Assembly: GCF_000175255.2 (NCBI RefSeq)
Contig: NC_017262.1
Location: 30,001-62,000 of the forward strand
Source of the DNA: Zymomonas mobilis subsp. mobilis ATCC 10988
GTDB lineage: Bacteria > Pseudomonadota > Alphaproteobacteria > Sphingomonadales > Sphingomonadaceae
Reading direction: 5' to 3'
Length of the DNA stretch: 32,000 nucleotides
How positions within the stretch are numbered: position 1 is the stretch's first letter; each line of letters opens with the position of its first letter. A model generated the notes under the pieces. It ran no database searches. It was not told where the DNA came from and saw only the letters and a program-made list of their open reading frames with translations. Shown here in pieces: positions 796 to 31,352 of this stretch. The position numbers were made by a program, and so were the translations under genes.

Positions 796-2433
796 CTAGG
801 CTTTTTTACCATTTTGGGTCGGATGAATGATCGGAGCGGCGGGAAGATGGACAATAAAGCTAGCACCGGCTTTTCCATGCGACCGCTTGGCGACCTCAAT
901 CGTGCCGTGATGGGCTTCAACCGTCGCTTTCGCAATCGCCAATCCCAAACCACTATGGCGACCAAAGGCTTCCTGACTGGGGCGGACAGAATGGAATCGC
1001 CGGAAAATTTCTTCCTTGGCATCATCCGGCACGCCGGGGCCTTCATCTTCTACTCTGATGACAACATCATCTTTGTCGCGGGTTGTGGTAATCGTTACCA
1101 AACCATCCGGCGGCGAAAATGAAATCGCGTTATCGATCAGATTTTCAACAACCCGCGTCAATCTCGTGCCATCGCCCAAAACCACGGCAATACCGGATTG
1201 CGGGCGGGCAAAAGCAATACGGACATCGGCTGCATCAGGCCGCCTCTCGCAATGCTTGGTGACACCTTGAATTAACGGGCCTAAATCAATGACTTCAAAG
1301 CTGGAACGCGCCATTTCTGCGTCAACACGCGAAGCCTCTGAAATATCGGTAATCAGGCGATCTAACCGCTGAATATCGTCACGAATGACGCCGATCAATT
1401 GCTGCCGCAAATGATCGTCTTTTATCATTTCCAGACTATCGACCGCCGACCGTAACGAAGCCAACGGATTTTTCAGCTCATGCGTTACATCAGCAGCAAA
1501 AGCCTCTGTCGCATCAATCCGCTGTTGCAAGGCGGTATTCATATCAGACAGCGATCTCGCCAATAGACCAATTTCATCACGGCGCGCGGGCAGGCGAGGG
1601 ACTTTAACCTCTCTTGCCTGTCCTAAACGGACGCGTACCGCTGCTTTGGCAAGGCTTTTCAATGGGTGAACAATTGTTCGCGCCAAAAATAAAGACAATC
1701 CGACAGAAACACAGGTAACGACCAATAAAACGATCATTGCCCAAAAACGCTGCCGTCTGACCTTATGGGTAATATAACGCGGGTTATCCGTTGCAAATAA
1801 GGTAGCGCCATCTTTCCCGATAGGGGTCGCGATTGAAATCAACGGTGTCCGATCCGCCGCCCATCTTATCTGCGCTGCCATTTCATTCTGGCTACGGGCA
1901 GTCACCGCTTCCGGCCATGCTTGCAGCCGGTCATCTTTCGGTTCCTGATAATAACTTAACGGGCTGGCATGGACGACAATATCATTGATCCGATCCAATG
2001 TGCGGGCAAGACGGTGCTGCCAGTCATCTTTTTTCGGGTCATGAATGGTATAAGTAGGCGGCTGTCCGTCCCAGCTATCAAATTGCCTTTTTCCGTCGGA
2101 ATTAAAAATCCGAATACGAAAGCCGGTTTGCTGTCCCATCTTACCGATCAGGCGATCCCATTCCGCTTCCGGTGTATTTTCGAGATTATCGGTAATAAGC
2201 TCGACCATCGCTTTATATTTACCGGTCTGAAGACCCGTCAGGCGATCGCGATATTGGGCGACATAGAAAAAGGTGCCAGCAAATATCAGAAGAACGAAAA
2301 TATTCACGGCCAGAATACGGGCAGTCAGCGACCAACGCGCTGACCAACCAAGCGCAAGCTCGTTTCTCCGCCAGTGATAGCGGGAAGCCGCGTCTTCTTC
2401 TTTATTCTTCGGCAAATCGGTAGCCGATACCAT
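796..2433 (-). CDS. chvG: Sensor histidine kinase, ChvG/ExoS-like
   Basis: 545-aa ORF with two hydrophobic segments ([19 protein letters not shown] and [22 protein letters not shown]) flanking a periplasmic region. H-box [10 protein letters not shown] and ATPase boxes DNAISFS, DEGPGV and GLGLAI are present. It overlaps the upstream response regulator gene by 32 nt. Confidence 0.8.
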
Positions 2434-3109
2434 AGAGCGTCTCTATACTTTTGAATTGATTATCTACCTGGCGGAATTTACGCCGCAGGCGCTTGATATG
2501 GCTGTCTATGGTGCGATCATCGACATAGACATCATCCTGATAGGCGGTATCCATCAATTGGTCACGCGATTTTACAAAACCGGGACGCTGCGCCAAGGCC
2601 TCAAGGATCAGAAACTCTGTCACCGTCAAGGAAATATCCTCACCGTCCCATGACACCTGATGCCGATCAGGGTCCATCACCAGACGACCTCTAACAATGA
2701 TATGGCTATTTTGGGGCGTTTCTTCAGATTTTTCCTGAAATCTGGCTTCGGTGCGCCGTAACAAAGCCCGAATCCGCGCGATCAACAGTCGCAAAGAGAA
2801 AGGCTTGGCGATATAATCATCGGCACCGGAAGCCAAACCCAAGGCCTCATCCAGCTCATCATCTTTGGAGGTCAGAAAAATGACCGGCACCATGCTTTTT
2901 TCACGCAATCGCCGCAAAACCTCCATTCCGTCCATGATGGGCATTTTGATATCCAAAACAACCAAATCGGGCGGCGATTCCAAAAGTGCATTCAGAGCCG
3001 TTTTCCCATCAGAATAGACTCTGACAGAAAATCCCTCTGACTGAAGCGTCATCGAAACCGAGGCTAAAATATTACGGTCATCATCGACCAAGGCGATTGA
3101 AGCAGTCAT
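2402..3109 (-). CDS. chvI: OmpR-family response regulator, ChvI-like
   Basis: 235-aa ORF with a receiver domain ([22 protein letters not shown]) and a winged-helix C-terminus ([17 protein letters not shown] ... YGIGYRF). It is paired with the chvG-like kinase. Confidence 0.8.
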
Positions 3110-3370
3110 TTATTTTCGCTCTACTGCATAAATCATTGTGAAATGGCAACCATTATCGGCCAAATTTTTTTATCCTTTTGCTACTCTTGATCGGTTCTTT
3201 GATTTATTTCCGCTTCTAACAACGGGTTTAAACAAAAAATGCAAAATAAATAAGGAAAAACCCTATCAGGGTGCTAGAAAGCAAAGCCATCCCATTATAT
3301 AGGGCTACGAATCTTATTGCCCAATCAGATCCTTATGAATTTCTATGATTAAGGTTTTGAACGGGCCTGA

Positions 3371-4843
<1,473 letters not shown>

Positions 4844-4872
4844 AAGCTTTGTTGTAACGATCAAAAGGAGTC

Positions 4873-6105
4873 TTGGCGGTGATCCCTCAAGCCAGAGTAG
4901 AAGCCGCCATAGAACTGCTTGACCAGATTATTCAGGCGGTGCGTGACGAAGGTTCTGCGGCTGATCGACTGATTAGCCAATATTTCAAAACGCGCCGCTA
5001 TGCTGGTTCAAAAGATCGGGCAGCCATTCGCAGCTTGGTCTATCGGGCTATTCGCGAGATAGGCGATTGTCCGATAAATGGGCGCGCTGCGATGATCCAG
5101 TTGGCACAAAATGATGCTGAACTGGCTTTCTTATTTGACGGATCAATGCGCGCTCCTGCGCCCATATCCGATAAAGAATTCGCTGAAGCGGCTAAAATTT
5201 CTCAAAAAAACACATCTTTGCTGCCTGCATGGCTAGCTGAAAAGATGGCGGCCAGCGATATCGACACCGCCGAGCAAAATGCTCTTTTGGGGCGCGCTCC
5301 GCTCGATATTCGCTTTAATCCCCATTTAACGGATATAGACACGGTTCTTGCAGCCTTCCCAGAAGGGCAAGTAATATCCGGCTTACCTTATGCGGTTCGT
5401 CTTCCCGAAGGCACAAAAGTCGATCAATCTCCTTTGTGGAAATCGGGTGCGATCGAAATACAGGATGCCGGTTCCCAATGGGCAAGTTCTATCTGCCAAG
5501 CCCAATTAGGCATGAAGGTCATTGATCTTTGCGCAGGGGCAGGGGGTAAAAGCCTCGCTTTGGCTAGCGATATGTTGGCCAATAACAATGCGGCAAAATT
5601 GGATTTGATCGCTTGCGATACCGACCGCAATCGTCTGTCTCGATTGCAACCTCGCGCGGAACGCGCCAAACTGCCCCCCATTGAACAACGGCTCCTTAAT
5701 CCTAAACAGGAAGAGAAGGCATTAGGCGACCTCGCACATCAAGCGGATCTCGTGTTAATTGATGCCCCTTGTTCTGGAAGTGGCACATGGCGGCGTAATC
5801 CCGAAGCCCGCTGGCGCCTCAATCCGACGCGCTTGCAACGGGTTATCGACACGCAAAGCCATCTTTTGGATGTTGCCTCTCAACTGGTTCGCCCTAACGG
5901 CTATTTGGTCTATGTCGTCTGTTCTGTACTGGATGATGAAGGTGCCAACCAGATCACGGCTTTCCTCAATCGTCATCCTGATTGGACAGTCGAAAATCCA
6001 GATATCCAAGCGGGGTGTTTACGCGGGGATGGTCGTCGCTTTACTGTGCTTCAAGACAAAAGTGATGGCTTTTTTGTCAGTCGGCTCCGTTATATCGGCC
6101 GTTAA
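4873..6105 (+). CDS. RsmB/RsmF-family SAM-dependent rRNA m5C methyltransferase
   Basis: 410-aa ORF with a TTG start 3-8 nt after AAGGAG (4865-4870). It has the SAM motif DLCAGAGGKS, the catalytic PC motif DAPCSGSGTWRRNPE and the second Cys motif YVVCSVL. Confidence 0.8.
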   Translation: MAVIPQARVEAAIELLDQIIQAVRDEGSAADRLISQYFKTRRYAGSKDRAAIRSLVYRAIREIGDCPINGRAAMIQLAQNDAELAFLFDGSMRAPAPISDKEFAEAAKISQKNTSLLPAWLAEKMAASDIDTAEQNALLGRAPLDIRFNPHLTDIDTVLAAFPEGQVISGLPYAVRLPEGTKVDQSPLWKSGAIEIQDAGSQWASSICQAQLGMKVIDLCAGAGGKSLALASDMLANNNAAKLDLIACDTDRNRLSRLQPRAERAKLPPIEQRLLNPKQEEKALGDLAHQADLVLIDAPCSGSGTWRRNPEARWRLNPTRLQRVIDTQSHLLDVASQLVRPNGYLVYVVCSVLDDEGANQITAFLNRHPDWTVENPDIQAGCLRGDGRRFTVLQDKSDGFFVSRLRYIGR

Positions 6106-6313
6106 AGCCGCGATAGAACGCAAAATTTAAAGCCAAAATCGGCGTTTTTGCCTCTCATCAATAACGGATAAAATCTTTACTGACCTGATTGTCTCTTTCC
6201 GCCATCATAACTATTCGTTGCGATGGCAAGATAGTCAGGTTAGAGTTTTCCTTAATCGGTCATTATCGGTTGTCATGGGTAGTCTTCAGTCTGTTCCTTT
6301 TCCGGAGAAAATA

Positions 6314-6904
6314 ATGCATTTTTCGCCTCTAGCCCTTGTCCTTTCTCTGACATTGGCCTCAGGAACACCGGTGCTTCAAGGTAGAGCGGATAGCGATATC
6401 AATCCCTATTCTACCCATTTGATGCTTCAGGCTGAAAAATCGCAAAAAGAAGGCCATCTGGTCGAGGCCGAACAACTTCTTGAAAGCGCTCTGGCCGTCG
6501 ATCCTCGCAATAAAAATGCCTTTATCGCTTTGGGACGTGTGGCCGCTGCACAGGATTTAACCGGAAAAGCCATTCGTTTTTATCGCAGCGCATTAACGAT
6601 TGATCCGACCGACACCACGGCATTGGAAGCGCAAGGCGAAGCCATGGTGGCCAAAGGTGCCATGAATAGAGCGCAGCAAAATCTTACGAAAATAAAAGAA
6701 ATCTGTAAAACAGAATGCCCTGCCTATAATGCCCTTGCTGCCGTTATTGCCAAAGGCCCACCGGCCACCTCACAGGTCAAAACTGCTGATAGCCACATAG
6801 CAAATGACAATTCCGCAACAGTTGCCTCGAATACGCCTAAAAACACTTCGTCTTCCGAAGCCACTTCTAAAACGCCTAACACCTCCAAAAATATTATAAA
6901 ATAA
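6314..6904 (+). CDS. Secreted TPR-repeat protein with S/T/N-rich tail
   Basis: The in-frame ATG at 6314 is preceded by GGAG (6304-6307) and gives the signal-like N-terminus MHFSPLALVLSLTLASGTPVLQG. TPR-like repeats follow (AEQLLESALAVDPRNKNAFIALG, AIRFYRSALTIDPTDTTAL). The longer ORF-track start at 6218 lacks these features. Confidence 0.6.
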   Translation: MHFSPLALVLSLTLASGTPVLQGRADSDINPYSTHLMLQAEKSQKEGHLVEAEQLLESALAVDPRNKNAFIALGRVAAAQDLTGKAIRFYRSALTIDPTDTTALEAQGEAMVAKGAMNRAQQNLTKIKEICKTECPAYNALAAVIAKGPPATSQVKTADSHIANDNSATVASNTPKNTSSSEATSKTPNTSKNIIK

Positions 6905-7326
6905 TATTTTAAGGTCATAATTTTAATTTTTTATACCAAAAATGGGGTTTTATTCCTTTTCTGGAATCGAATAGCAAAGCTCTGCGGGTAAAGCCTTTTC
7001 TGTCCGTGTTTTTTTGTGTATCTCCTCTTCAACTTTTACCTATAAAATTCGCCAGAGCCTATAAAACTCATATCTTGCTGATTTTGTTGTTTTATAATGG
7101 CTATGTCTTTTTATTCATTTGGTATTTTGAGGAGGATGTGCACTGCGCTTTCAAAAGATATCTGAAAATACTCTATTTGTGATGACTGACGATATTATGG
7201 GAAATGAATTCCATCGTTTATTCATCATCAAGATGGTATCATGGCAAGCAATGTCTCATCTTATTCATTTCTCCCTGAAATAACGGAAGAAATAGCCTCT
7301 TTGCTTTGCATAAAATTATTGTATTT

Positions 7327-7354
7327 TTGCAGCAAAAATACTTGATAGTATAAT
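7327..7354 (+). promoter_or_regulatory. Candidate sigma70-type promoter for the 7408-11211 cluster
   Basis: TTGCAG (7327-7332), a 16-nt spacer, then TATAAT (7349-7354), about 55 nt upstream of the ATG at 7408. A GATCTTG/CAAGATC inverted repeat (7359-7365 / 7379-7385) lies in the putative leader. Confidence 0.3.
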
Positions 7355-7407
7355 CAACGATCTTGTAACGGACTTAAGCAAGATCATTACTCCCTAGGTT
7401 TATAGCA

Positions 7408-8130
7408 ATGCCCCAACCCGAGCCTTCCCGAAATAGATCAGCCCCTCTCATCGCCCTTGTCGGTGCCGATGGAAGTGGCAAGACCACTGTTGGTCAGGAA
7501 TTGCTTGAATGGTTGCAGACAATGCGGCCGACGGCTTTTTGTCATCTTGGAAAACAAACCGGAAATTGGGGTCGGGCTATTGCCCGTATGCCTTTTGTGG
7601 GCAAAAAACTTGATAAACAAGTTATTGCCCGCTCTTCCAAAGCACGGGATGAAAAAGGGGCAGGGGCAACGGTTTCAATCGTTATTTTTGCGCTTTCCAT
7701 GCGTCGGGTATTTCGTTTTTTGCGGATGCGAAGACTCCATCGCAAGGGCTTTATGATCTTAACCGATCGTTACCCTCAAGCGGTTGTTCCTGGGCCCATG
7801 GACGGGCCCGGCTTGGTCGCCAGAAATCCGAAAGGCATGATTGCTCGCTTTTTGACGGGGCGAGAGCAAGCCTTATATGATTGGATGGCTTCTTATAAGC
7901 CGGATATCGTGATCAGGCTCAATGTCGATCTCGAAACGGCACTCAAACGCAAACCCGATCATCGACCCGCTTCTTTGGAAAGAAAAGTAAGGGATGTTCC
8001 TCGCTTGTCTTTTAATGGGGCCCCTATTCTCGATCTGGATAGCCGCGAACCCTTGGATCAGGTAATTGGCAAAGCAAAAGCTGCCATTCTCGACGTTATT
8101 GCGCGTTATGACCAAGCGACCGCCAAGTAA
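7408..8130 (+). CDS. Thymidylate-kinase-like P-loop NTPase/kinase family protein, paralog 1
   Basis: 240-aa ORF with P-loop LVGADGSGKTT and a DRY-type motif LTDRYPQA, as in dTMP-kinase-fold proteins, plus DGPGL and RKPDH motifs. It is clearly paralogous to the next gene. Confidence 0.7.
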   Translation: MPQPEPSRNRSAPLIALVGADGSGKTTVGQELLEWLQTMRPTAFCHLGKQTGNWGRAIARMPFVGKKLDKQVIARSSKARDEKGAGATVSIVIFALSMRRVFRFLRMRRLHRKGFMILTDRYPQAVVPGPMDGPGLVARNPKGMIARFLTGREQALYDWMASYKPDIVIRLNVDLETALKRKPDHRPASLERKVRDVPRLSFNGAPILDLDSREPLDQVIGKAKAAILDVIARYDQATAK

Positions 8131-8134
8131 ACCC

Positions 8135-8905
8135 ATGGAATTATTATTGGATAACAAGACGCCACCGATTGAAAAGGCTCCCTACCCAAAGGCTCATACT
8201 CATCCGACGGGTAAATTGATCGCGCTTGTCGGCTGTGATGGCAGTGGGAAATCCAGTCTGACGACAGATCTCATTGCGGCCATACAAAAATATACGCCTG
8301 TCAAACGCTATTATCTTGGCTTGGGATCAGGGGATTTGGGCAGAAAAATCGGACAAATTCCTGTAGTCGGATCATGGATCGAAAATCTTCTCAAGCAAAG
8401 GGCGACTACCACTCGGACAAAAGGCAAAAAGATACCGGGTGTTATGACGGCATTAGTCGTTTATTTTTTCTCTTTACGGCGTTTTTGTTCCTATCTCAAA
8501 ATGAGACGCGCCTTAAAGACTGGTATTACGGTTATCACAGACCGCTATCCACAGGCTGAAATCGCTGGACAATGTGACGGACCCGGCTTGTCAGCCGCTA
8601 AGGCTGGCAATCGTTTTGTCAGTTGGCTGGTGCGGTCAGAAGCTGCACTTTACCAACGAATGGCGTCCTTCCAACCTGATCTCGTTTTACGTCTGGATGT
8701 CGATCCCGAGACAGCCCATGCTCGTAAACCCGATCATGATATTGAGGCGCTGCGTATTAAATCGGAAATTATGCAGCATTTGACTTTCGGTGGCGCCCAT
8801 ATGGAAGTCATCGATGCCACGCGCCCCTATAAGGCTGTCTGGAAAGATATTGTGCGTTTGGTGCAACCCTATCTAACGGTTGACCTCGCTTCAAACCAGA
8901 AATAG
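8135..8905 (+). CDS. Thymidylate-kinase-like P-loop NTPase/kinase family protein, paralog 2
   Basis: The ORF is open from 8066 (TTG). ATG candidates are at 8108 and 8135, and 8135 is chosen because it does not overlap the upstream stop. P-loop LVGCDGSGKSS, ITDRYPQA, DGPGL and RKPDH motifs are colinear with paralog 1. Confidence 0.7.
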   Translation: MELLLDNKTPPIEKAPYPKAHTHPTGKLIALVGCDGSGKSSLTTDLIAAIQKYTPVKRYYLGLGSGDLGRKIGQIPVVGSWIENLLKQRATTTRTKGKKIPGVMTALVVYFFSLRRFCSYLKMRRALKTGITVITDRYPQAEIAGQCDGPGLSAAKAGNRFVSWLVRSEAALYQRMASFQPDLVLRLDVDPETAHARKPDHDIEALRIKSEIMQHLTFGGAHMEVIDATRPYKAVWKDIVRLVQPYLTVDLASNQK

Positions 8906-8990
8906 CACAAAAATCCATTCAATAGGGCCAGACTTCATCCCGAATTTTGGCCTTAAATTTTACTAAGGTAAGAAAAGGCAAGAACCGCCT

Positions 8991-10325
8991 ATGTCAGGAT
9001 GGTTGAAAGACCGCGTTTTTCGAACTGTTCTGAAAAACGCAGGATATCTGGGATCAACAAAACTGATCGGCGCTTTAATCGGGCTAGGCGCGCTGATTGG
9101 GGCAGGGCGGATGCTGACGGCGGTGGAATTCGGTACGTTGATGCTGATTCACACATATGCTTTGGGGGTCGGTGCCTTAACCAAGTTTCAAAGCTGGCAG
9201 ATGATTTTAAAATTTGGTGCCCGTCCTTACGAACAAGGCAACCGTTCTATTGTAGCCAAAGCCATCCGTTTTGCGGTTGGACTGGATATGGCTTCAGGTG
9301 TTTTTGGTATGGTCGTTGGTATGACGATATTGTGCTTTGCGGCTTCCTATGTCGGAATTGGTCAACAATATACACCTATCGCGCTTTTATATTGTACCCT
9401 TATCCCTACAATGTCATCGGCGACTCCAACGGGTGTTTTGCGCTTGGTTGGGCGTTTTGACCTTCTTGCCAAACAACAAATTATTACCCCTCTTTTGCGG
9501 GGCGTTGGCGCGCTGCTTTCTTGGATATTGGGCCTCGGTTTTGTCAGCTTTGTTGCGACATGGTATCTAGCGGATATCGCCGGAGACCTCGTTTTATGGG
9601 TAATGACGGTAAAAGAACTCCGTGAACGGGACATGCAATCCGCTTTGCGTCCCAGCCTTCGCGAGGCACCCGCGTCTTTACCAGGGGTATGGAATTTCGT
9701 CTGGTTGACCAATCTTAACACAACACTGGATGCTTGCTGGTCTCCGGTTGGCAATCTGATTGTGGGCGGTATGTTGGGGGCGGCGGCGGCTGGTCGATAC
9801 AAGATTGCCACGACATTATTGGATTCTGCGGTCAAACCCGCGCGTTTTCTGGAAAAAGGTTTCTATCCTGAAATTATGCGTCTTGATCCCAAAAGCCGCC
9901 ATCCTTGGCATCTGGCTTTACGAACTGGCCTTCTGTCAGGGGCGATAGGCTTATGCGTCATGTTGGTTATCTTAATCGGTGGCAAGCCTCTTATCAGTCT
10001 GTTTGGCCATAAATATGCCGAAGCTTCGACATTGATGACAATCATGTCACCAGCCTTGGTGATCTCTATGGCCTGCTTTCCTCTGGAATCGCTGCTCTAT
10101 ATGGCGGGGCAGGCCAAGGCTGTGCTTGTTGCCCAGATTGTGTCGGTCATCACCTATATTACGGCTCTTGTGTGCTTAACCCATGCCTTTGGCCTGCATG
10201 GGGCAGGGATCTCTTATATTTTCGGTATCTTCCTATTAAATATTTTAGCCATGATTCCGGCTCTTATAGGCTATACACGTCGCTATCTTCTGGAATCCGA
10301 AACTGTTACCAACAGCGAAGTTTAA
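8991..10325 (+). CDS. MOP-superfamily (Wzx/RfbX-like) polysaccharide/oligosaccharide flippase-like membrane protein
   Basis: 444-aa ORF that is hydrophobic throughout, with roughly 12 predicted helices by eye. The N-terminus (FRTVLKNAGYLGSTKLIGALIGLGALIGAGRMLTAVEFG) resembles the Polysacc_synt family start. Confidence 0.65.
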   Translation: MSGWLKDRVFRTVLKNAGYLGSTKLIGALIGLGALIGAGRMLTAVEFGTLMLIHTYALGVGALTKFQSWQMILKFGARPYEQGNRSIVAKAIRFAVGLDMASGVFGMVVGMTILCFAASYVGIGQQYTPIALLYCTLIPTMSSATPTGVLRLVGRFDLLAKQQIITPLLRGVGALLSWILGLGFVSFVATWYLADIAGDLVLWVMTVKELRERDMQSALRPSLREAPASLPGVWNFVWLTNLNTTLDACWSPVGNLIVGGMLGAAAAGRYKIATTLLDSAVKPARFLEKGFYPEIMRLDPKSRHPWHLALRTGLLSGAIGLCVMLVILIGGKPLISLFGHKYAEASTLMTIMSPALVISMACFPLESLLYMAGQAKAVLVAQIVSVITYITALVCLTHAFGLHGAGISYIFGIFLLNILAMIPALIGYTRRYLLESETVTNSEV

Positions 10326-10341
10326 AGAGAGCAGAGAATCG

Positions 10342-11211
10342 ATGGGTTATAAAAAAGCACCGAAAAAGAATATCTCGCTGGCTAATCCGCGTTTTACAGA
10401 TGCCGAACTTGATCAATTATTTGAAAATGTCCTGCTAGATGATGAACCCCATCTTGAAGCCATCTGCCCTGACGGTGATCGACCTGCCTTAAAAGAGCAT
10501 GATAGCGAAGAATGTTATCGCCTTTGCTGGCAACTTCTTGAAAGAGGCGTCAATATACCGGATTTTAGACGACTGGTTTTAACGATTATCCGACGCGGTG
10601 GTACAGAGGATGCCGAAGAAAAACAGGCGTTCAAATATGCCCGCGCTCGTTTCAAACATATTCGCTTTGCTTGTGCCAATATGGATGAACGGCATCGCTA
10701 TCCATGGTCTGTCAATCTGGTAACCAGCCTGATGGGACATATGCAGGATGCGTTTAAAAATCGGCAAAAAGGCAAAACAATTTTGTGGGGCGCATTGCTT
10801 TGGGCTGCGCTGATGCCGCCTTTTTACAATATTGTGCGCTGGCAACTCGCCGATTTCAGACCTGCCAGTGTATCAAGCTTGATGACTTATTTTGCGGATC
10901 AAAATCGTAAAATCAAAACCGCCTTGAAAGATGACAAGGTCACAGGTCATAAATTCCATAATATTCGCAAAATCATCAGCCGTCGCATTTCTTTTAACGA
11001 TACCCTGCGGGTTATCCATCCGGCCAATTGGAATCACCAGATGTCTTTCTATCTGGCTACGATCAATGGCCTTATGGGCGATATGCATGACGAATTGGTC
11101 GAAAAGCAGATTCGAGGTGAACAGGACTATACCCAATTCGCTTTTCCGATACCGGATTCGATCCTTAGCCGTTTAAAAACTCTGTTAAAACTGGGTGAAA
11201 CCGGTTTTTAA
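10342..11211 (+). CDS. Soluble alpha-helical protein with CHAD-like repeated His/Arg motif (function unknown)
   Basis: 289-aa ORF starting 16 nt after the flippase stop. Two copies of a pattern resemble CHAD-domain helices: FKYARARFKHIRFACANMD ... LMGHMQDAF and FHNIRKIISRRISFNDTL ... INGLMGDMHDELV. The domain call rests on pattern recognition only. Confidence 0.55.
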   Translation: MGYKKAPKKNISLANPRFTDAELDQLFENVLLDDEPHLEAICPDGDRPALKEHDSEECYRLCWQLLERGVNIPDFRRLVLTIIRRGGTEDAEEKQAFKYARARFKHIRFACANMDERHRYPWSVNLVTSLMGHMQDAFKNRQKGKTILWGALLWAALMPPFYNIVRWQLADFRPASVSSLMTYFADQNRKIKTALKDDKVTGHKFHNIRKIISRRISFNDTLRVIHPANWNHQMSFYLATINGLMGDMHDELVEKQIRGEQDYTQFAFPIPDSILSRLKTLLKLGETGF

Positions 11212-11222
11212 TCACGACAAAT

Positions 11223-12059
11223 TTACGCCGACAGTTTTTCCCAATGTCGTCCAATGGCAATAAATTCCGCAACCGAAACGGTTTCAGGACGACGGGTTGC
11301 GTCAATGCCCGCCAATTCCAGGGCTTCCATCATATGCTCGATGTTTTTCAGGCTTTGGCGCAACATTTTCCGCCGCTGATTAAAGGCTGCTGCGGTAATT
11401 TTTTCTAACGTCCCTAGAGACAGACCTTCCGGCTGATCTTTCGGGGTTAAATGCACCACCGCAGACATCACTTTTGGCGGTGGCACAAAGGCCGAGCGAT
11501 GCACAGGAAAACTTAATTTTGCCTCGCTCCGCCATTGTGCCAGAACAGATAAACGCCCGTAATGAGGTGTCCCCACCTTGGCTGTAATGCGTTCGGCAAC
11601 CTCTTTTTGAAACATCAAGGTCAAGGAAGACCACCAAGGCTGCCATGTTTTTGCTGTCAACCAACGGATAAGAAGCGCGGTTCCAACATTATACGGTAAA
11701 TTGGCAACGATATGGACATGCTCACCCAAGACCGCTGCTTCGTCGATTTCCATCGCATCGCCGGAAATGACCTGAAGCTGATCGGGAAAATGAGCCGATA
11801 ATTCTGCCAAAGCCGGTAAGCACCGCCTATCCCGTTCTACAGCAGTCACCTTTGCTCCCGCCTTTAACAAGGCACGTGTTAGTCCTCCGGGACCCGGCCC
11901 CACTTCATAGACGGTTTTTTGCGTTAAATCTCCGGGAACACGGGCAATTCTATCTAATAGCTGGCTATCAAGAAGAAAATTTTGACCCAAGCGTTTGTCT
12001 GCCGACAACCCATGACGCGCAATGACAGCCCGCAACGGTTCAAGCGTTTGATCCAGCAT
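11223..12059 (-). CDS. rsmA: 16S rRNA (adenine1518/1519-N6)-dimethyltransferase
   Basis: 278-aa ORF with [20 protein letters not shown] and NLPYNVGT motifs. It is the last gene of the lptD-surA-pdxA-rsmA array. Confidence 0.95.
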
Positions 12060-12069
12060 AGTGATAGGC

Positions 12070-13077
12070 TTATCCGTCTATAGAATTTTGAGCATAGGCT
12101 TGGCGATTATGGGCAGAATTGGCCGCCATCACCAAAGCCGCCACCATGGCGCCTTCATCCGCCTTATTCTTCCCAGCCAAAGGAAAAGCCGTGCCATGAT
12201 CTGGCGAGGTTCTGATAATCGGCAAGCCCAATGTTGTGTTCACACCATTATCAAAATTGATCGTTTTGATCGGGATCAAGGCTTGGTCATGGGTCGGACA
12301 TAATGCGACATCGTAAGTGGCCCGCGCCCGTGGGCTAAACAGAGTATCCGCAGCAAAGGGGCCTTTAATATCAATATTTTCGGCTTGAAGCTGCCTGATT
12401 GCAGGTTCGATACTATCGATTTCCTCGCGTCCAATCGTGCCATTTTCTCCGGCATGGGGATTTAATCCGGCAACGACAAGACGAGGGGACGGAATAGCAA
12501 AATTCCGTTTCAGATCTTCTACAGTAACCCGGGCTCGGCTGATAATCAGTTCAGGCGTTAGCTGTTCCAAAACATCACGATAGGGAATATGGATAGTCAG
12601 CGGCACCGTTCTTAAATCAGGCCCCGCCAACATCATAACCGCATCATCGGCAGCAATACCGCAGCGATTAGCCACAAATTCGGTCTGTCCCGGAAAGGTA
12701 AAACCCACCTGATAGAGTTCGGCTTTTGAAACCGGTGCGGTTACCAAAGCCGAAGCCTGTCCCTGTTTGACCAAAGCCACGCCTTTTTCAAGGGCAGCAA
12801 ACGCGACCTCAGCGCCGGCTTTATTGGGTTTACCAGGGATAATGGTTTCTTTTGAGGGGATATCCCACACCGGTAAAGCCTGATCGAAAATAGAAATCAC
12901 TTCGTTCGGATCAGTGATCGCGACCACAGGAATCGATGAAACCGCCTGAATAGAAGCCGCGCTGCCTATCGCAAAGAAAGGCATAATCTGATCGCTTTTG
13001 CGGCGTGACCATGCTTTCGCAACGATTTCAGGGCCTATACCCGATGGGTCTCCCAATGTGACAGCAAGCGGTTTCAT
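12070..13077 (-). CDS. pdxA: 4-hydroxythreonine-4-phosphate dehydrogenase
   Basis: The ATG at 13077 gives [18 protein letters not shown], the canonical PdxA N-terminus. The ORF-track start at 13089 is a TTG 4 codons upstream. Also present are [10 protein letters not shown] and [11 protein letters not shown]. Confidence 0.93.
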
Positions 13078-13118
13078 CTTCTTTTCCAATCTAACGCTAT
13101 CCGATTTTGGTACCGGAT

Positions 13119-14534
13119 TTAACGGTAATCAATAATAGCGTCACGTCTTAAATCGCGTAGATAGCGAATAGCTCTTTTATTGACTCGATCTTCCTGCAAC
13201 TGATTATGAATCTGCTGGAAATTGGGCTGTTTTGCCACTTTCGGATCATCTCGGCCGCAAACAACCAAAACACTGACGCCTTCTTGAATAGAACCAAAGG
13301 GCAAAGTCGATTCACCCACTTGCAATTTGGCGACCATATTTTGCAAAAGCGGCGGCATCGAACGAATGCTGATTTGGTCATTCGACATGACATCAGCCCC
13401 GATTTTGTGGGCGATTTCATCCACCGAGCCACAGCCTTTTAATTCTTTTGTGGCATCTCTTAATTTGGCTGTTTTCTCATCAGCCACATTTTGTGATGTG
13501 CCGGGCGGGAAATTGACATATATCTGTTTCAACGCCACGATTGCATCTTTGGGATCAATGCCCAAAATCTGCTGTTTTTCCAATAATGCCACAATAGAAA
13601 AGCCGCCGGGGGTTTCAATCGGGCCCATCAAACTTCCGACTGGCATATTTTTAACGACGGCTGCCAAGGCATCAGGCAATTGCTCTGCTTGAATAAAGCC
13701 CATATCGCCGCCTCTCGCTGCCGAAGAAGCCTCGGAATATTGGGATGCAAAGGCGCTAAAAAGCCCCATTCTTTCGTTGGTGTTACCCCGTTGCAGAATC
13801 TGGTCTTGAATTTTGTTCGCTTTGGCACGGACTTCGGCACGGTTGGTATCATTCGCAGAAAAGAAAATTTCAGCGATATGATATTCATCTTTACCCTTGG
13901 CCGCCTTCATCCGATTGATGATATTCTGAACTTCTTCATTACTGATATTAACAAAGGGTTCAACGCGGCGGCCTAACAGACGCCGCCAAGCCATATCCGC
14001 TTCAACCTGACGCTTCACCGATTTCGCTGAAGAGCCAATAGCCTGCAAATCTGCGCTAAAGGCCTCCGGCGTTTTTTTCATATTGCGCGCATAATGCTCA
14101 AAGATTTGATCCAATTCAGTCGGCGTGATGATAATATCATTGGCCTTCGCTTCTTGGATTTCCAAAGTTTCATCGATCAGATTGCGCAAAATCTGCAATC
14201 TCGCCATATTGCGATCTTCTTCAGAAATCCTGCTGACATCACCGCCAGCCGAAGCCAGAATCAAAGCAAAGCGCTGCTCAATATCCGTATTGGTAATGAT
14301 GGTGCCATTGACGATAGCCGTCGCTTTATGGACATTCGGGTTGCTTTTACCAAAAACCGTCATTTGCTGCGGTAATTTCAGCCCTAGATTATCGCTTTGT
14401 GCTAATAGGAAGGCGGGGGCAGCCACTGCCACGCCTCCCGCGAATATCATCGCGACAGTTCTTTTGATGCGTTTTTTTGAAACGGTGTATAGTTTCTGCG
14501 TTACCCGCAACTTTGTATCCTCAATGGCTTCCAC
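13119..14534 (-). CDS. surA: Periplasmic chaperone / peptidyl-prolyl isomerase SurA-like
   Basis: 471-aa ORF with a signal-like segment (KRTVAMIFAGGVAVAAPAFLLAQS), a SurA N-domain and a parvulin-like region (GGDMGF ... GFSIVALLEK). It sits between lptD and pdxA. Confidence 0.85.
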   Translation of the reverse strand: MEAIEDTKLRVTQKLYTVSKKRIKRTVAMIFAGGVAVAAPAFLLAQSDNLGLKLPQQMTVFGKSNPNVHKATAIVNGTIITNTDIEQRFALILASAGGDVSRISEEDRNMARLQILRNLIDETLEIQEAKANDIIITPTELDQIFEHYARNMKKTPEAFSADLQAIGSSAKSVKRQVEADMAWRRLLGRRVEPFVNISNEEVQNIINRMKAAKGKDEYHIAEIFFSANDTNRAEVRAKANKIQDQILQRGNTNERMGLFSAFASQYSEASSAARGGDMGFIQAEQLPDALAAVVKNMPVGSLMGPIETPGGFSIVALLEKQQILGIDPKDAIVALKQIYVNFPPGTSQNVADEKTAKLRDATKELKGCGSVDEIAHKIGADVMSNDQISIRSMPPLLQNMVAKLQVGESTLPFGSIQEGVSVLVVCGRDDPKVAKQPNFQQIHNQLQEDRVNKRAIRYLRDLRRDAIIDYR

Positions 14535-14652
14535 AAGACTTCACCTTTATATGGGGAAGCACGTTGGTTTTGAAAATGAAAAATACTTTTTTCACTATAA
14601 ATTTTAAGCAAAATCTCAAGATAGGCAGCTTTCTTCTGCCTAATGCCCAAGG

Positions 14653-16977
14653 CTAACTATTCATATTCTTAAGGGCAAATCGCAGCATGAAACTATTACC
14701 ACGGCGGGAATCCCCGACCGTTGAATAATCGCGCCGCCATGTCACACCCAAAGTCAGACAGTTATCGTCATATTCGATGCCCAAACGATGCCGGACAGGC
14801 TGGAAACCATCAGACAAAAGGCTGCTGTTGGTATTATTATAGAGATCCGCCTGCTGCTGGTTAGCGCGCTGATCTTTCTTGGTGGTCATATCGACCGTGG
14901 TCGAACCAAAAATAGACCAATAATGGGAAATCTGAATACGCCCACCCAGACGCAATTCTCGATAGTTACCCAAATCAGGTTCCAACTGGGTATCAATATC
15001 ACGGCTCAATTGGAGATAACCCACCATAAGATAGGTGCGCTTACTACCGATTGTGGCATTCACTTCCTGACGACGGATAGCCAATGTCTTGCGGTCAAGG
15101 CGAATACGCTCTGTTAATTTAAAGAAAGAACCATAGCTTAAAGTCGCACGACCGACATAGTCAGAGAAGCGGCGATTAAATCCGGTACCCTGCGGGAAGA
15201 TTTCATCTTCGGTAATAATCCGCATACTCTGTCCGACATTGCCATAAAAAGAAAACATCGGACGATGGAAGGTATATTCACCGCCATAGGTCACACGCGT
15301 GCCATCTTCCCAACGGTCATAGCCGGGAAAGCGGTTGATTGAAAAAAGATTGGTATCCTGAAGATCGATTGACCGTGAATCCTCATCAGGAATCGATAAA
15401 TTTCTGACATGTGGCGATGTCACAATCTGGACTCTTGGGGTTAAAACCTGATTGCCGCCAAAGGCTTCGCCTGCAAACGGCCAGCTAACATCGACCGCAC
15501 CAGCGGCGATACCACGTTGCTGCCATCCGCTGGAGCCGCGATATAATTCGCTGGTCAACGCATTGCCGCTGCTATGATACAAATCTTGGCGCAACAAAGC
15601 CGTAAAGGTTACTCTTTGCCCCAAAGGTGTATATTTTCTTAAATTCCATTCCGCACTGGCAAAGGCACGCTGGGTATCTTGTCCGGTGATACGGGTCAAA
15701 TTCATGCTATTTGCTTGGAAGGAAAATTCACCCCCCAACCAAGGATCAGGCATCCGCATCCGCCAATCAATAATAGGCAAAGCCATAGGCTGGGTGCCGG
15801 AATGATCGGTTGGACGCAAACCTTGGATAACCCAACCGGCGACCGAGAAATAACTATTATCGGTAATCCGTTCAAGATTCAGCGTCGAACGCAAACGGTC
15901 ATCCCAAGCAAAGTCATAACGCCGCAAGAAGGTTTTATCAGTCGTTAATCGAATAGAGCCGGTCAAACTCCATTTGGGGTCGATCTGGAATTTACCATTG
16001 GTATTGATATATCCACGCATCTTGGAATGGGCATTGCTATCTGCAAGAGTTGGGTTTTGGGATTCCGTTGGCAAAGGCGTGCTTCGCGTCAACATGCCTT
16101 CAATCTGGAAAAATCCCTTGCTGAAAAGCTGGCGATATTTCGCGCCTAACCCCGGATCAGCTTTAGTAAAAATATAAGGGGTCAGGGTTAAATCACGGTC
16201 GGGTGCCAATCGGAAATAATAAGGGACAGAAAATTCAAAACCGTTCATTTTTGACCGCTGGATATGCGGAATCAAAAGCCCTGAACTCATGGTTGAATTT
16301 TGGTCAGGATAGGAAAAATTCGGCAATTTAAGGATCGTATGCCCCAAAACATCCAGTCTCGGAGATTTGAAAACGACTTTTTCCTTATTCGGATCACGAA
16401 TAATTTTAACCGCTGAAATGCGCCATAAAGGGGTCTTTGGACATCCCTCGTCATTGATAACGCGACAAGGGGTATAGGCCGCCATATCAAGGGTCGTCAC
16501 ATCATTGACACGGGTCGCTTTATTCGCCGCCATCCGTGACCCATTTTGCATAACCAGCAAGATATTCTGGATAACGCCATCTTTCAGATGGGGATCAAGA
16601 TCGGCCTTGTCACTATAGGATATCGTGCCATCTTCCTGAATGATGATGACGTGACCGGTTGCCGTTACTTTATCGGCTTTTCTATCCCATTGCAGCTCAT
16701 CGGCACTTAAACGCGTTTCATTTTGAACCGCATGGACTTTGCCATTTACCGTTACAATGTCATTGTCATGGTCATAGACAAGATTATCGGCTTCAAATGT
16801 AATGGGTGCCTCTTTTTTGCTACCTGCATCAGAGGTTGAAGCCTTATTGGTCGCTGTTTGATCTGAAGAAGGCGCAACCGAAGGTGGCGTGCCTGTTTCA
16901 GCCGCAGCTTGCGATAGGAAAATGCTGGACAGAATCAGCGGCATGGCCGTGAGCATGTCGGTTCTGAGATACTTCAC
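14653..16977 (-). CDS. lptD: LPS-assembly outer membrane protein LptD
   Basis: 774-aa ORF with a signal peptide (MLTAMPLILSSIFLSQAAA), an OstA-like N-domain (ITFEADNLVYDHDNDIVTVNGKVH) and a large beta-barrel region. It is in conserved synteny with surA. Confidence 0.9.
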   Translation of the reverse strand: MKYLRTDMLTAMPLILSSIFLSQAAAETGTPPSVAPSSDQTATNKASTSDAGSKKEAPITFEADNLVYDHDNDIVTVNGKVHAVQNETRLSADELQWDRKADKVTATGHVIIIQEDGTISYSDKADLDPHLKDGVIQNILLVMQNGSRMAANKATRVNDVTTLDMAAYTPCRVINDEGCPKTPLWRISAVKIIRDPNKEKVVFKSPRLDVLGHTILKLPNFSYPDQNSTMSSGLLIPHIQRSKMNGFEFSVPYYFRLAPDRDLTLTPYIFTKADPGLGAKYRQLFSKGFFQIEGMLTRSTPLPTESQNPTLADSNAHSKMRGYINTNGKFQIDPKWSLTGSIRLTTDKTFLRRYDFAWDDRLRSTLNLERITDNSYFSVAGWVIQGLRPTDHSGTQPMALPIIDWRMRMPDPWLGGEFSFQANSMNLTRITGQDTQRAFASAEWNLRKYTPLGQRVTFTALLRQDLYHSSGNALTSELYRGSSGWQQRGIAAGAVDVSWPFAGEAFGGNQVLTPRVQIVTSPHVRNLSIPDEDSRSIDLQDTNLFSINRFPGYDRWEDGTRVTYGGEYTFHRPMFSFYGNVGQSMRIITEDEIFPQGTGFNRRFSDYVGRATLSYGSFFKLTERIRLDRKTLAIRRQEVNATIGSKRTYLMVGYLQLSRDIDTQLEPDLGNYRELRLGGRIQISHYWSIFGSTTVDMTTKKDQRANQQQADLYNNTNSSLLSDGFQPVRHRLGIEYDDNCLTLGVTWRRDYSTVGDSRRGNSFMLRFALKNMNS

Positions 16978-27308: not shown

Positions 27309-27571
27309 TTATTATAAAATTAATTCCTTATATTTTAATTTTTTCTTCCATTTATTTTGAAATTTTATTGTCTTAAAATAAAATATTTATAACAACATTT
27401 CTTATTTTACTAATAATTTGCATCTTTTCAATAGAAAGTAATGAATATCCCGTTTATTTTGAAATTTAAATGCTAAAATATTGATTTTTTAGGGTTTTTA
27501 TTTTTTAAAAATGATAATTTATAAAAAAATGAAAATTGGTCGGGTTGACTATAATCAGCAAAAATTAGGTG

Positions 27572-27595
27572 AAAATTTATTTTAAAATAAATTTT
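27572..27595. repeat. Perfect 24-bp A/T-only palindrome AAAATTTATTTTAAAATAAATTTT
   Basis: Read directly: the sequence equals its own reverse complement over all 24 positions. It lies in the 620-bp AT-rich gap between the receptor gene and the next CDS. Confidence 0.6.
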
Positions 27596-28685: not shown

Positions 28686-28778
28686 AATGCCACGCAATTC
28701 GAATTGATTATATAACATTTTAGCTCCCCTCTTCCGATCATCTCAGGCATGACAATAGAAATACATCTCGACGATCAA

Positions 28779-31346: not shown

Positions 31347-31352
31347 CATCCG

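Follow-up and report, generated by a model that had tools for sequence, protein, structure and literature searches.

The ceramide cluster of Caulobacter crescentus, CC_1152–CC_1168, is the closest described system to the locus reported here. It holds spt, acpR, cerR, aasR, the candidate flippase CC_1166, the ceramide kinase CpgB and LptC2/F2/G2. CC_1166, itself a prediction, has been proposed as a sphingolipid flippase, and CC_1162–CC_1166 constitute the gene set matched by the spt loci discussed below (PMC11324152, S1 Text). Taken singly, the proteins of our locus resemble thymidylate kinases (PF02223/TIGR00041), Wzx/PST-type MOP flippases (for example Wzx, WzxE and TacF) and CHAD proteins, or "phosins", such as those of Ricinus communis (6qv5), Chlorobium tepidum with polyphosphate (6qva) and Streptomyces (PptA, 6rn5). 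A sequence-only reading of this DNA could not match the gene combination to a described pathway, and a literature search found neither a paper describing it nor experimental work on ZMO1315–1318. The module is an undescribed combination of known families.

The window is a stretch of 32,000 nucleotides from Zymomonas mobilis subsp. mobilis ATCC 10988. Its cluster of four + strand genes, at 7408–11211, is composed as follows.

7408–8130, + strand: K1 (ZMO1318), a very basic P-loop kinase of the thymidylate-kinase fold, 240 aa, without a transmembrane segment
8135–8905, + strand: K2 (ZMO1317 by position), a K1 paralogue of the thymidylate-kinase fold, 256 aa
8991–10325, + strand: FLP (ZMO1316), a multi-pass flippase of the PST/MOP family, 444 aa
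10342–11211, + strand: P4 (ZMO1315), a cytoplasmic, all-helical CHAD-type protein, 289 aa

By accession, the cluster is ZMO1318 and ZMO1316–1315, with ZMO1317 assigned by position. The open reading frames bear out the same-strand arrangement seen earlier, with gaps of 4 nt (K1–K2), 85 nt (K2–FLP) and 16 nt (FLP–P4). The K2 frame is open from a TTG at 8066, and the ATG at 8135 was chosen by alignment to homologues. The cluster is flanked by rsmB and a TPR protein gene on one side and by ksgA-pdxA-surA-lptD on the other. Genes for a glycosyltransferase, a polymerase or a chain-length regulator are absent from its flanks within the window, as had been noted from the sequence.

The 503 nt upstream of K1 (6905–7407) were previously called a long leader. 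Intergenic region is the better description: some 54 nt before K1 it contains a conserved promoter-like site, and after that a palindrome.

7326–7354, + strand: promoter-like site, TTTGCA and TATAAT separated by 17 nt, 54 nt 5' of the K1 start codon
7359–7385, + strand: palindrome GATCTTG-N13-CAAGATC, just 3' of the −10 hexamer, read from the sequence

The promoter-like site matches 10 of 12 consensus positions, the count of such sites in the region being not above shuffled expectation. It lies within the sole intergenic block that is identical in the window and in the divergent locus of Z. mobilis AN0101 (L007). Both arms of the palindrome are also kept in L007, while the 13–14 nt spacer differs. 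Among all loci compared, the pattern occurs only upstream of K1 in three Zymomonas sequences (the window, L006 and L007). As RNA its fold is not exceptional (z = −1.27), and the palindrome is a candidate operator or 5' stem-loop.

Pfam and fold matches upheld all the family assignments made earlier. K2 scores 30.8 bits against Pfam Thymidylate_kin, above the gathering score of 27, and K1 (AAV89942) 26.2 bits. In the AF2 model of K1 (pLDDT 90.7), thymidylate kinases account for all of the top 50 PDB fold matches (probability 1.0, TM 0.52–0.58). However, assignment of the pair to the well-characterised dTMP-kinase housekeeping family was rejected, as K1 and K2 reach only 29.9 and 40.0 bits against TIGR00041, whose cut-off is 83.25. 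The two are paralogues with 38% identity (E 1e-51) that fall into separate orthologous groups, and they are fused as a single 480-aa ORF in 13 loci of the Bombella/Saccharibacter group. With thymidylate kinases they share the fold, the GxDGSGK P-loop with its Asp, the DRY/F motif and the FSxxR helix. Both contain G-x-D-G-S-G-K-T/S and T-D-R-Y-P-Q, and the conserved motifs of K2 are Walker A, TDRYPQ and RKPDH. The LGKQTG, F/L-S-x-R-R and TDRY/F motifs of the K profile align to FPxRxTG, FSANR and DRY of thymidylate kinase, which bind the acceptor nucleotide phosphate. Unlike thymidylate kinases, K1 and K2 have an additional invariant MDGxGL loop, the RKPDH motif, an Arg-rich helix and a far more basic composition (42 K+R against 23 D+E in K1), and their genes neighbour those for a flippase and a CHAD-type protein instead of DNA-precursor genes. 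An analogy to PPK2 drawn from the sequence is not supported, since neither kinase has a PPK2 Pfam match.

FLP matches Pfam Polysacc_synt with 37 bits (gathering score 28.2) and Polysacc_synt_3 with 29.1 bits, and has at least eight strongly hydrophobic segments. Pfam membership and multi-pass topology are thus common to FLP and the Wzx/PST-type flippases. FLP differs from these in that a PDB sequence search gave no match, with no solved MOP transporter matched, and in having no phosphoglycosyl transferase, polymerase or chain-length genes nearby. It also belongs to its own subfamily, which travels with the K and P4 genes. This subfamily is tight, with more than 50% identity in the best 120 of 504 matches, and comes from Sphingomonadaceae and Acetobacteraceae. 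CC_1166 and FLP are in the same Pfam family, but ZMO1443, rather than ZMO1316, is published as the best orthologue of CC_1166 in Z. mobilis (PMC11324152).

P4 is a divergent CHAD-type helical protein. The window sequence has no Pfam match and lies below the CHAD threshold, while 7 of 31 family members match CHAD PF05235 (best E 4.7e-6) and several homologues are labelled CHAD domain-containing in UniRef. The AF2 model is all-helical (pLDDT 93.4), with the CHAD domains 6qv5, 6rn5 and 6qva as top PDB fold matches (E 0.02–0.25). The P4 motifs FHxxRKIISR and LMGxMHD align to H..R..K..RY and LG..HD of a bona fide CHAD protein, and the invariant residues are basic or His (R101, K105, R108, H118, H206 and R209). 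Neither a transmembrane segment nor a signal peptide was found. P4 therefore shares the helical bundle and conserved His/Arg motifs of the phosins, but its TM-scores to them are only 0.37–0.46, it has no CYTH domain fusion, and it is partnered by kinases and a flippase rather than by polyphosphate kinases or phosphatases. Fusions of more distant P4-like domains to a cytidylyltransferase-like domain and to kinases with different folds (APH/choline-kinase-like, ABC1) also occur, which makes the pairing of kinase and CHAD a recurrent one. K and P4 are both strongly basic.

The four families stay together across genomes, as a check proposed with the sequence-only reading showed. They are adjacent in most of 80 species-level loci. 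Among the 61 species loci flanked on each side by 5 kb or more, a K kinase lies within 7 kb of P4 in 52 and an FLP-family gene is present in 44; the full set K, K, FLP, P4 occurs in 37/43 alphaproteobacterial loci. The kinase accompanying P4 is of the K1 type in nearly all loci, and in several sphingomonad loci the FLP and P4 genes touch or overlap. The wider contexts are unrelated: the module lies by ksgA in Zymomonas, by an efflux pump in Gluconobacter and by hut genes in Roseomonas. The cluster had been called resident rather than recently acquired. Its composition is indeed native (GC 0.44–0.50, resembling the remaining window), but each of the four proteins has its nearest relatives in Acetobacteraceae (Gluconobacter wancherniae, 74/61/68/55% identity), whereas the best identities within Sphingomonadaceae, the family of Zymomonas, are at most 57/51/54/42%. 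These sequence comparisons indicate an old lateral exchange.

The module borders the ceramide operon aasR-cerR-acpR-spt in Methylophilaceae, Rhodocyclaceae and related loci, and in some species lies within it, often with PAP2 lipid phosphatases and a GT4 glycosyltransferase as further neighbours. The FLP homologue there is directly beside the operon, as CC_1166 is in Caulobacter (PMC11324152). The spt-adjoining flippase of Methylophilaceae is 29% identical to FLP over 401 aa, with only 3 gaps. Five loci (L047, L049, L052, L055 and L076) have K-K-P4 beside genes for an OlsC/LpxO-like acyl hydroxylase and a DUF2147 protein, an FLP homologue and spt, which scores 638 bits against the serine palmitoyltransferase model NF047599 (cut-off 500). 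After spt, L076 carries an acyl-carrier-protein gene, checked in this locus only, and epimerase/CerR-like and AMP-binding AasR-like genes; the latter two are also carried by L049. In L072, spt is present too, arranged differently. Two PAP2 genes adjoin K/P4 in 10–11 beta/gamma loci, and one does in Commensalibacter. None of the alphaproteobacterial loci, this window included, has a sphingolipid gene within 10 kb of the module, and in not being beside spt the alphaproteobacterial module is unlike the Caulobacter cluster. Its hosts in Sphingomonadaceae and Acetobacteraceae are sphingolipid/ceramide producers. Z. mobilis spt (ZMO1270) and cerS (ZMO1400) have been listed (PMC11324152, Table S2C), and the organism already has a CpgB-type ceramide kinase orthologue, ZMO1391 (PMC11324152).

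We tentatively propose, with a probability of roughly 0.45, that ZMO1318–ZMO1315 form a self-contained accessory operon whose kinases phosphorylate, in the cytoplasm, the head group of an envelope lipid, ceramide-based or another lipid phosphate, before the lipid is flipped. K1 and K2 would be non-redundant cytoplasmic kinases, probably paired or sequential, with ATP as phosphate donor and the inner-leaflet head group as their target. Since both retain the acceptor-site motifs of NMP kinases, the acceptor could plausibly be a phosphate monoester, in which case the product would be a lipid di- or oligophosphate. P4 may bind the anionic phosphorylated head group or link kinases and transporter. 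Transfer of the lipid to the periplasmic leaflet would fall to the dedicated PST/MOP flippase, after which, in many relatives, PAP2 phosphatases and the GT4 glycosyltransferase may process it. A PST-family (IPR002797/PF01943) candidate flippase and cytoplasmic ceramide head-group phosphorylation would be common to the proposed module and the Caulobacter cluster. The module kinases have the thymidylate-kinase fold, however, while CpgB has the LCB5/diacylglycerol-kinase fold, and no CHAD-type protein is reported for the Caulobacter cluster in the literature searched. The earlier suggestion that the genes phosphorylate and export or modify an envelope or polyphosphate-linked substrate is compatible with these data but unspecific, and foresaw neither the ceramide/sphingolipid loci nor PAP2.

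An undecaprenyl carrier-lipid pathway would account differently for the flippase, which would move a sugar or small glycan linked to Und-PP and synthesised by enzymes whose genes lie elsewhere. The glycan or carrier would then be phosphorylated by K1 and K2, PAP2 would recycle Und-PP and P4 would be an accessory phosphate-binding factor. Characterised Polysacc_synt/PST members flip Und-PP-linked glycans, and polyprenyl-diphosphate-linked glycans are, to our knowledge, the cargo of every MOP/PST flippase characterised so far. Every host has Und-P, the LPS-less sphingomonads among them. Relatives also add GT4 (15 loci), a carbamoyltransferase and PAP2 proteins whose NCBIfam matches include undecaprenyl-diphosphatases, all far below family cut-offs. 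Yet no phosphoglycosyl transferase, polymerase or chain-length regulator lies beside the module in the loci examined, and the Zymomonas, sphingomonad and Gluconobacter versions are without any glycosyltransferase. We know of no P-loop TMK-type kinase in Und-linked pathways. Together with the FLP homologue that directly adjoins spt, downstream on the same strand, in five loci, this makes the pathway unlikely.

Also doubtful, and ranked below it, is a soluble P4–K1 core. Here P4 would bind polyphosphate, and the substrate phosphorylated by the kinases would be a small NMP-like molecule, perhaps with oligophosphates consumed or produced. Flippase and lipid genes would be adjacent for regulation or supply, for example of an activated head-group donor. 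Pseudomonas, Azotobacter and Xanthomonas have only the P4–K1 pair, without flippase or shared lipid neighbours, in contexts that vary and in one case include a PHO4 phosphate transporter, so the substrate of the core pair may be soluble. The retained acceptor-site motifs and P-loop Asp of K, the basic character of K and P4, and the polyphosphate complex 6qva among the P4 fold matches fit with this, CHAD domains being polyphosphate binders; the cytidylyltransferase-like domain of a distant P4-like protein suggests head-group activation. Against it are the scores of K1 and K2 far under dTMP-kinase cut-offs, the lack of a PPK2 match, the dedicated flippase in 44/61 loci, often abutting or overlapping P4, and the PAP2 phosphatases recurrently adjoining the pair. 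The window P4 also falls short of the CHAD model, and its polyphosphate binding is a prediction.

Modification of LPS is very improbable. In this reading lipid A or core sugars would be phosphorylated by the kinases and PAP2 phosphatases would be their counterparts, in line with the weak LpxE/LpxF matches of the PAP2 neighbours, the LpxO/OlsC-like hydroxylase, the synteny of RND efflux genes with the module in many beta/gamma loci and the adjoining lptD-surA in the window. However, the PAP2 and hydroxylase matches are far under family cut-offs, the lptD neighbourhood is Zymomonas-specific, and the complete module is commonest in Sphingomonadaceae, which lack LPS. Chance adjacency of duplicated housekeeping thymidylate kinases, an unrelated transporter and a hypothetical protein follows the public annotations of K1 ("thymidylate kinase" or "nucleoside triphosphate hydrolase") but is already contradicted by the sub-cut-off equivalog scores and by co-conservation in alpha-, beta- and gammaproteobacteria together with gene fusions and frame overlaps, and can be given almost no weight.

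Some 200 bacterial species keep the module together. With 204 matching stretches in 185,579 species genomes it is rare, and it is therefore no part of core sphingolipid synthesis.

The four open reading frames at 7408–11211 are present as the sequence-only reading had described them: two paralogous kinases (K1 and K2), a flippase (FLP) and a CHAD-type protein (P4), all on the forward strand. Together with two upstream elements recognized from the sequence, they are arranged as follows.

7326–7354, +, promoter-like site, TTTGCA-17 nt-TATAAT
7359–7385, +, perfect 7-bp inverted repeat GATCTTG-N13-CAAGATC, directly downstream of the −10-like hexamer
7408–8130, +, K1, 240 aa
8135–8905, +, K2, 256 aa from the ATG at 8135, 4 nt past the K1 stop
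8991–10325, +, FLP, membrane protein of 444 aa, after an 85-nt gap
10342–11211, +, P4, 289 aa, after a 16-nt gap

P4 is ZMO1315 (AAV89939), as named in the record found by exact-sequence cluster look-up. FLP (AAV89940, ZMO1316) and K1 (AAV89942, ZMO1318) were assigned by accession order, and K2 (ZMO1317) by position. The K2 frame is open from a TTG at 8066, and homologue alignments start near residue 40 of that frame. K1 is preceded by 503 nt of AT-rich intergenic DNA and, before that, a TPR-protein gene. On the other side, ksgA is convergent with P4 and ends 11 nt past it, followed by pdxA, surA and lptD. The promoter-like site falls in the sole intergenic part that is invariant between the window and the divergent strain AN0101. 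The arms of the inverted repeat are kept, with a different spacer, in Zymomonas sp. W26 (L006, 484–510) and Z. mobilis AN0101 (L007, 7015–7042), making the repeat a candidate operator or 5′ hairpin. As for a riboswitch or known RNA in the 503-nt region, no Rfam family reached its gathering score anywhere in the window. No intrinsic terminator was found on the forward strand in the three intergenic gaps, and weak consensus matches occurred only inside coding sequence. The short gaps and the lack of terminator-like sites fit co-transcription of the four genes.

K1 and K2 are 38% identical. The AF2 model of K1 (pLDDT 90.7) has thymidylate kinases (TMKs) as all of its top 50 PDB matches, each at probability 1.0, with TM-scores of 0.52–0.58 normalized to the query and 0.58–0.71 to the target, at 16–21% identity. 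From its identity to K1, K2 is predicted to share this fold. The P-loop (GADGSGKT in K1, GCDGSGKS in K2) and the TDRYPQ motif of both proteins are invariant across 31 homologues. In the profile of these homologues, LGKQTGxxGR, F/L-S-x-R-R and TDRY/F align with the FPxRxTG, FSANR and DRY elements of Plasmodium TMK, which grip the acceptor nucleotide and its phosphate. Invariant features peculiar to these kinases are an MDGxGL loop, an RKPDH motif and an Arg-rich helix; the family is very basic (42 K+R vs 23 D+E in K1) and lacks a membrane segment. Profile searches did not place the pair in the housekeeping family: the TIGR00041 dTMP-kinase model, with a cut-off of 83.25 bits, gave only 29.9 bits for K1 and 40.0 bits for K2, while Pfam Thymidylate_kin (PF02223, gathering score 27 bits) gave 26.2 bits for K1, just missing the threshold, and 30.8 bits for K2, just over it. 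Because the TIGR00041 scores are low, the family has its own invariant features and the composition is basic, K1 and K2 appear to have the TMK fold yet not to be the housekeeping dTMP kinase. Hundreds of public ‘thymidylate kinase’ annotations are probably wrong. The analogy to PPK2 polyphosphate kinases drawn earlier was not borne out; with no PF03976 match at E up to 1 and only TMKs among the top 50 fold neighbors of K1, a PPK2 identity was ruled out.

P4 of the window has no Pfam match, CHAD (PF05235) included. CHAD is matched by 7 of 31 P4-family members (best E 4.7e-6), and distant P4-like proteins match it above the gathering score. The P4 motifs FHxxRKIISR and LMGxMHD align with H..R..K..RY and LG..HD of a bona fide CHAD protein, although hhalign of P4 against that single protein gave E 0.0024 at a probability of only 12%. 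The P4 model is all-helical (pLDDT 93.4). Its three best PDB matches are CHAD structures, 6qv5 (probability 0.99), 6rn5 (PptA) and 6qva (polyphosphate bound), at E 0.02–0.25, with TM-scores of only 0.37–0.46 and an rmsd of 11–12 Å, and two more CHAD entries, 3e0s and 6qv7, appear at ranks 21 and 44 (E 0.7–1.2). The invariant residues of P4 are mostly Arg, Lys and His. We treat P4 as a divergent CHAD-type protein that may bind polyphosphate.

The P4 family is small, with 493 representatives at E up to 1e-3 in an exhaustive profile search of 1.84 billion proteins. Its distant members include fusions of a P4-like domain with an APH/choline-kinase-like domain (P0472, P0473 and P0510), with an ABC1 atypical kinase (P0523) and with a cytidylyltransferase-like domain (P0501); in P0399, two P4 copies stand in tandem. 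These fusions make the pairing of a CHAD-type domain with a kinase a recurrent design that draws on non-homologous kinases. The context of the APH–P4 fusions was uninformative on their short contigs, bar one neighbor, a secreted 240-aa protein (L087, 3367–4089) that appears from its sequence to be CYTH-like.

FLP matches Polysacc_synt (PF01943) at 37.0 bits against a gathering score of 28.2, and Polysacc_synt_3 at 29.1 against 23. It is multi-pass, with at least eight segments of mean hydropathy 1.6 or more, and has no sequence match to any solved structure.

Conservation of the module was followed by scanning one genome per species (185,579 species) with a P4 alignment, which gave 204 confirmed stretches; 80 loci were retrieved and searched with the four window proteins. 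The genes are co-conserved: among the 61 loci that extend 5 kb or more to either side of P4, at least one K gene lies within 7 kb of P4 in 52, and an FLP-family gene is present in 44. Two K genes, FLP and P4 occur together in 37 of 43 alphaproteobacterial loci. K1-type and K2-type kinases form separate orthologous groups, and the order is K1-K2-FLP-P4 in Zymomonas and Gluconobacter japonicus and K2-K1-FLP-P4 in Sphingomonas, Novosphingobium, Sphingobium and Roseomonas. In Bombella, Saccharibacter and G. wancherniae, FLP-P4 comes first and the K genes after it lie on the other strand. The Bombella/Saccharibacter group has K1 and K2 fused in 13 loci (L011, L012 and L014–L024, two from unnamed Acetobacteraceae) into an ORF of ~480 aa, K1 N-terminal and K2 C-terminal, convergent with FLP-P4 (for example L014, 10887–12329, − strand). 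FLP and P4 abut or overlap in several sphingomonad loci. The genomic contexts of the module are unrelated, and the module is thus self-contained.

The set can also be divided. In Acetobacter estunensis, K1-K2 and P4 lie at separate sites, and some sphingomonads have a second, solitary P4 paralogue. Pseudomonas, Azotobacter and Xanthomonas have P4 and a K1-type kinase side by side with the other module genes absent, and these pairs have no common neighbors. P4 and K1 are therefore the evolutionary core. In Pseudomonas veronii (L001, region 983–16837), the pair at 8001–9566 is flanked on one side by genes for a canonical CHAD protein, a ParA-like ATPase and Xre-type antitoxins and on the other by a Tn7-like tnsA/B/C/D set, and it may travel on a mobile island. 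An anti-phage defense system was ruled out, though this pair is near Tn7-like genes: PADLOC gave only a P-loop-level match of K1 to VakA (E 0.0036, 28 residues), and K2, FLP and P4 matched none of its defense models. Separately, a gammaproteobacterial MAG contig (L061, 645–5358) carries two P4 paralogues and three K genes within a single 5-kb stretch, with an OlsC-like hydroxylase fragment alongside.

The closest proteins to those of Zymomonas are from Gluconobacter wancherniae, at 74, 61, 68 and 55% identity for K1, K2, FLP and P4, respectively. The Sphingomonadaceae counterparts reach at most 57, 51, 54 and 42%. These higher identities point to probable lateral exchange of the cluster with acetic acid bacteria, which live in the same sugar- and ethanol-rich habitats as Zymomonas, although the composition is native today. 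The sequence-only reading had called the cluster resident rather than recently acquired; its compositional part stands, with a cluster GC of 0.44–0.50 that resembles the window, and its view of the origin is qualified by the probable exchange. At 27001–32000 of the window, GC falls to 0.34–0.41 against about 0.47 elsewhere, and two ORFs of at least 150 aa there (27930–28685 and 30605–31165) have no Pfam match; this region may be an acquired island. A TonB-dependent receptor occupies two consecutive ORFs on the reverse strand at 24879–27308 (Plug, 26337–27308; β-barrel, 24879–26330), which points either to a sequencing error or to a pseudogene with a frameshift or stop codon. At 162–653, also on the reverse strand and next to a ChvG/ChvI-like two-component pair (796–3109), lies a 163-aa ORF whose match to HPr(Ser) kinase/phosphatase (68.9 bits against a cut-off of 240) is limited to the C-terminal kinase part.

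When every ORF up to 8 kb from P4 was clustered, an extended locus emerged that is kept in beta- and gammaproteobacteria, namely Nitrotoga, Methylotenera, Methylophilaceae, Rhodocyclaceae, Burkholderiaceae and several MAGs. It comprises a pair of RND pump genes with an outer-membrane factor, a pair of PAP2 phosphatases, K, P4 and a GT4 glycosyltransferase, with up to two further K genes and, in some cases, carbamoyltransferase/SxtJ genes. The synteny of two RND genes, outer-membrane factor, two PAP2 genes, K, P4 and GT4 is conserved at ~1–16 kb of L035, L038, L043, L046–L050 and L056, often joined by carbamoyltransferase, DUF5989, SxtJ-like and SGNH-like proteins, and it suggests a larger envelope-remodeling or resistance island around the module in these loci. 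PAP2 genes stand beside K/P4 in 10–11 beta/gamma loci, and once more in the alphaproteobacterium Commensalibacter, with K1 on one strand and K2-PAP2-P4 after it on the other. Enzymes of the PAP2 family dephosphorylate lipid phosphates or pyrophosphates and have their active sites in the periplasm.

In five beta/gamma loci the module lies beside ceramide-synthesis genes. In L047, L049, L052, L055 and L076, a K-K pair is followed by DUF2147, an FLP homologue (FLPb) and the serine palmitoyltransferase gene spt, with an OlsC/LpxO-like acyl hydroxylase after K-K in all except L055 and L076. The spt product passes the NF047599 serine palmitoyltransferase model (638 bits, cut-off 500). In L076, the one locus in which an acyl-carrier-protein gene was looked for, spt is followed by such a gene and by NAD-epimerase/CerR-like and AMP-binding AasR-like genes; the latter two are also present in L049. 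L055 encodes a 388-aa protein, a possible bacterial ceramide synthase, with a weak GNAT-family match (E 1.6e-4). In L072, spt is arranged differently, and linkage to spt/acpR/cerR/aasR is partial. The Caulobacter ceramide cluster CC_1162–CC_1165 has the same gene set as the spt-adjacent loci. The alignment of FLPb with Zymomonas FLP spans 401 residues at 29% identity and needs only three gaps (E 1e-40), and no solved MOP transporter comes nearly as close to either protein.

Among alphaproteobacteria, the full module is hosted by Sphingomonadaceae, Zymomonas and Acetobacteraceae, all of them producers of ceramide or glycosphingolipids. Z. mobilis itself has spt (ZMO1270), cerS (ZMO1400), a cpgB-like gene (ZMO1391) and cerR (PMC11324152 Table S2C). 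We favor, at a probability of roughly 0.45, an accessory module for the modification and export of an envelope lipid, probably a sphingolipid. The ceramide link follows from operon-level adjacency in at least two arrangements and several beta/gamma families, together with the host distribution. Cytoplasmic K1 and K2 would phosphorylate the lipid head group; the two would be non-redundant and probably physically paired, being fused in some genomes. P4, also cytoplasmic, would bind the resulting anionic group or couple the kinases to the transporter, and the dedicated PST flippase would translocate the lipid. Where present, PAP2 and GT4 would process it further.

Several observations count against a sphingolipid module. 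No sphingolipid gene lies within 10 kb in any alphaproteobacterium: spt, acpR, cerR and aasR have no linkage to the module over that distance in the window or in any alphaproteobacterial locus. CC_1166, encoded next to the Caulobacter ceramide cluster and of the same InterPro/Pfam family as FLP, has been proposed as a phosphosphingolipid flippase (PMC11324152, S1 Text), and its published Z. mobilis orthologue is ZMO1443 (30% identity, E 2e-69; BLAST tables, PMC11324152 Table S2C), not ZMO1316; accession mapping thus rules out that FLP is this published orthologue. Z. mobilis also already has a CpgB-like ceramide kinase, and CpgB itself has an LCB5/diacylglycerol-kinase fold unrelated to that of K1 and K2.

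An undecaprenyl-linked glycan or carrier-lipid pathway is the least unlikely of the alternatives. The earlier remark that FLP lacks the company of a glycan locus proved right, with the initiating phosphoglycosyl transferase, glycosyltransferases and Wzy/Wzz all absent around it in the window; relatives of the module have, in the neighboring loci examined, no more than a single GT4, and both phosphoglycosyl transferase and polymerase are missing. Next in our estimation, and likewise unlikely, is a soluble nucleotide or polyphosphate kinase pair to which the flippase is secondary. The loci with P4 and K1 alone hint at a soluble molecule as the possible substrate of the core, and they too count against the sphingolipid module.

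Within the preferred lipid-export reading, the acceptor may be a phosphate monoester and the product a lipid pyrophosphate, since NMP-kinase acceptor motifs are retained and MOP flippases, PAP2 and CHAD share a ‘pyro/oligophosphate’ theme. Its most specific form, in which sphingolipid export would run on a pyrophosphate carrier cycle comparable to that of Und-PP, is rather improbable. In such a cycle, K1/K2 (K3/K4 in some genomes) would be lipid-phosphate kinases acting like NMP kinases and would build a di- or oligophosphate from a lipid monophosphate, for example ceramide-1-phosphate or the 3-keto precursor of it. P4 would chaperone the oligophosphate head group to the MOP flippase, and periplasmic PAP2 would strip the phosphates. 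Modification of LPS or lipid A is very improbable, as the sphingomonads, which have no LPS, argue against lipid A as a common substrate. Chance adjacency of housekeeping kinases is contradicted by the low dTMP-kinase scores and the co-conservation, and we give it almost no credence.

A literature search on ZMO1315–1318, ZMO1443 and the combination of CHAD, thymidylate kinase and flippase returned nothing relevant, and public databases label the genes generically or misleadingly (‘thymidylate kinase’, ‘lipopolysaccharide biosynthesis protein’, ‘hypothetical’). The superfamilies of the components are known; the gene combination and its link to the ceramide operon are undescribed. For bacterial sphingolipids, no inner-membrane flippase or transporter has been identified, according to the group that mapped the pathway (PMC11087976), and the sole protein put forward for flipping, CC_1166, is a candidate only (PMC11324152). 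With the module there is a second candidate, a flippase subfamily that is sharply defined and adjoins the ceramide operon in several beta/gamma lineages. Alongside it are two unrecognized partners, the TMK-fold kinases and the CHAD-type protein, that are testable in the tractable industrial strain Z. mobilis ZM4. If the carrier cycle were true, it would be the first bacterial sphingolipid flippase system and would bring a new class of lipid kinase. Even without a sphingolipid substrate, the association of CHAD-type domains with three kinase folds suggests a role for CHAD beyond the decoration of polyphosphate granules.
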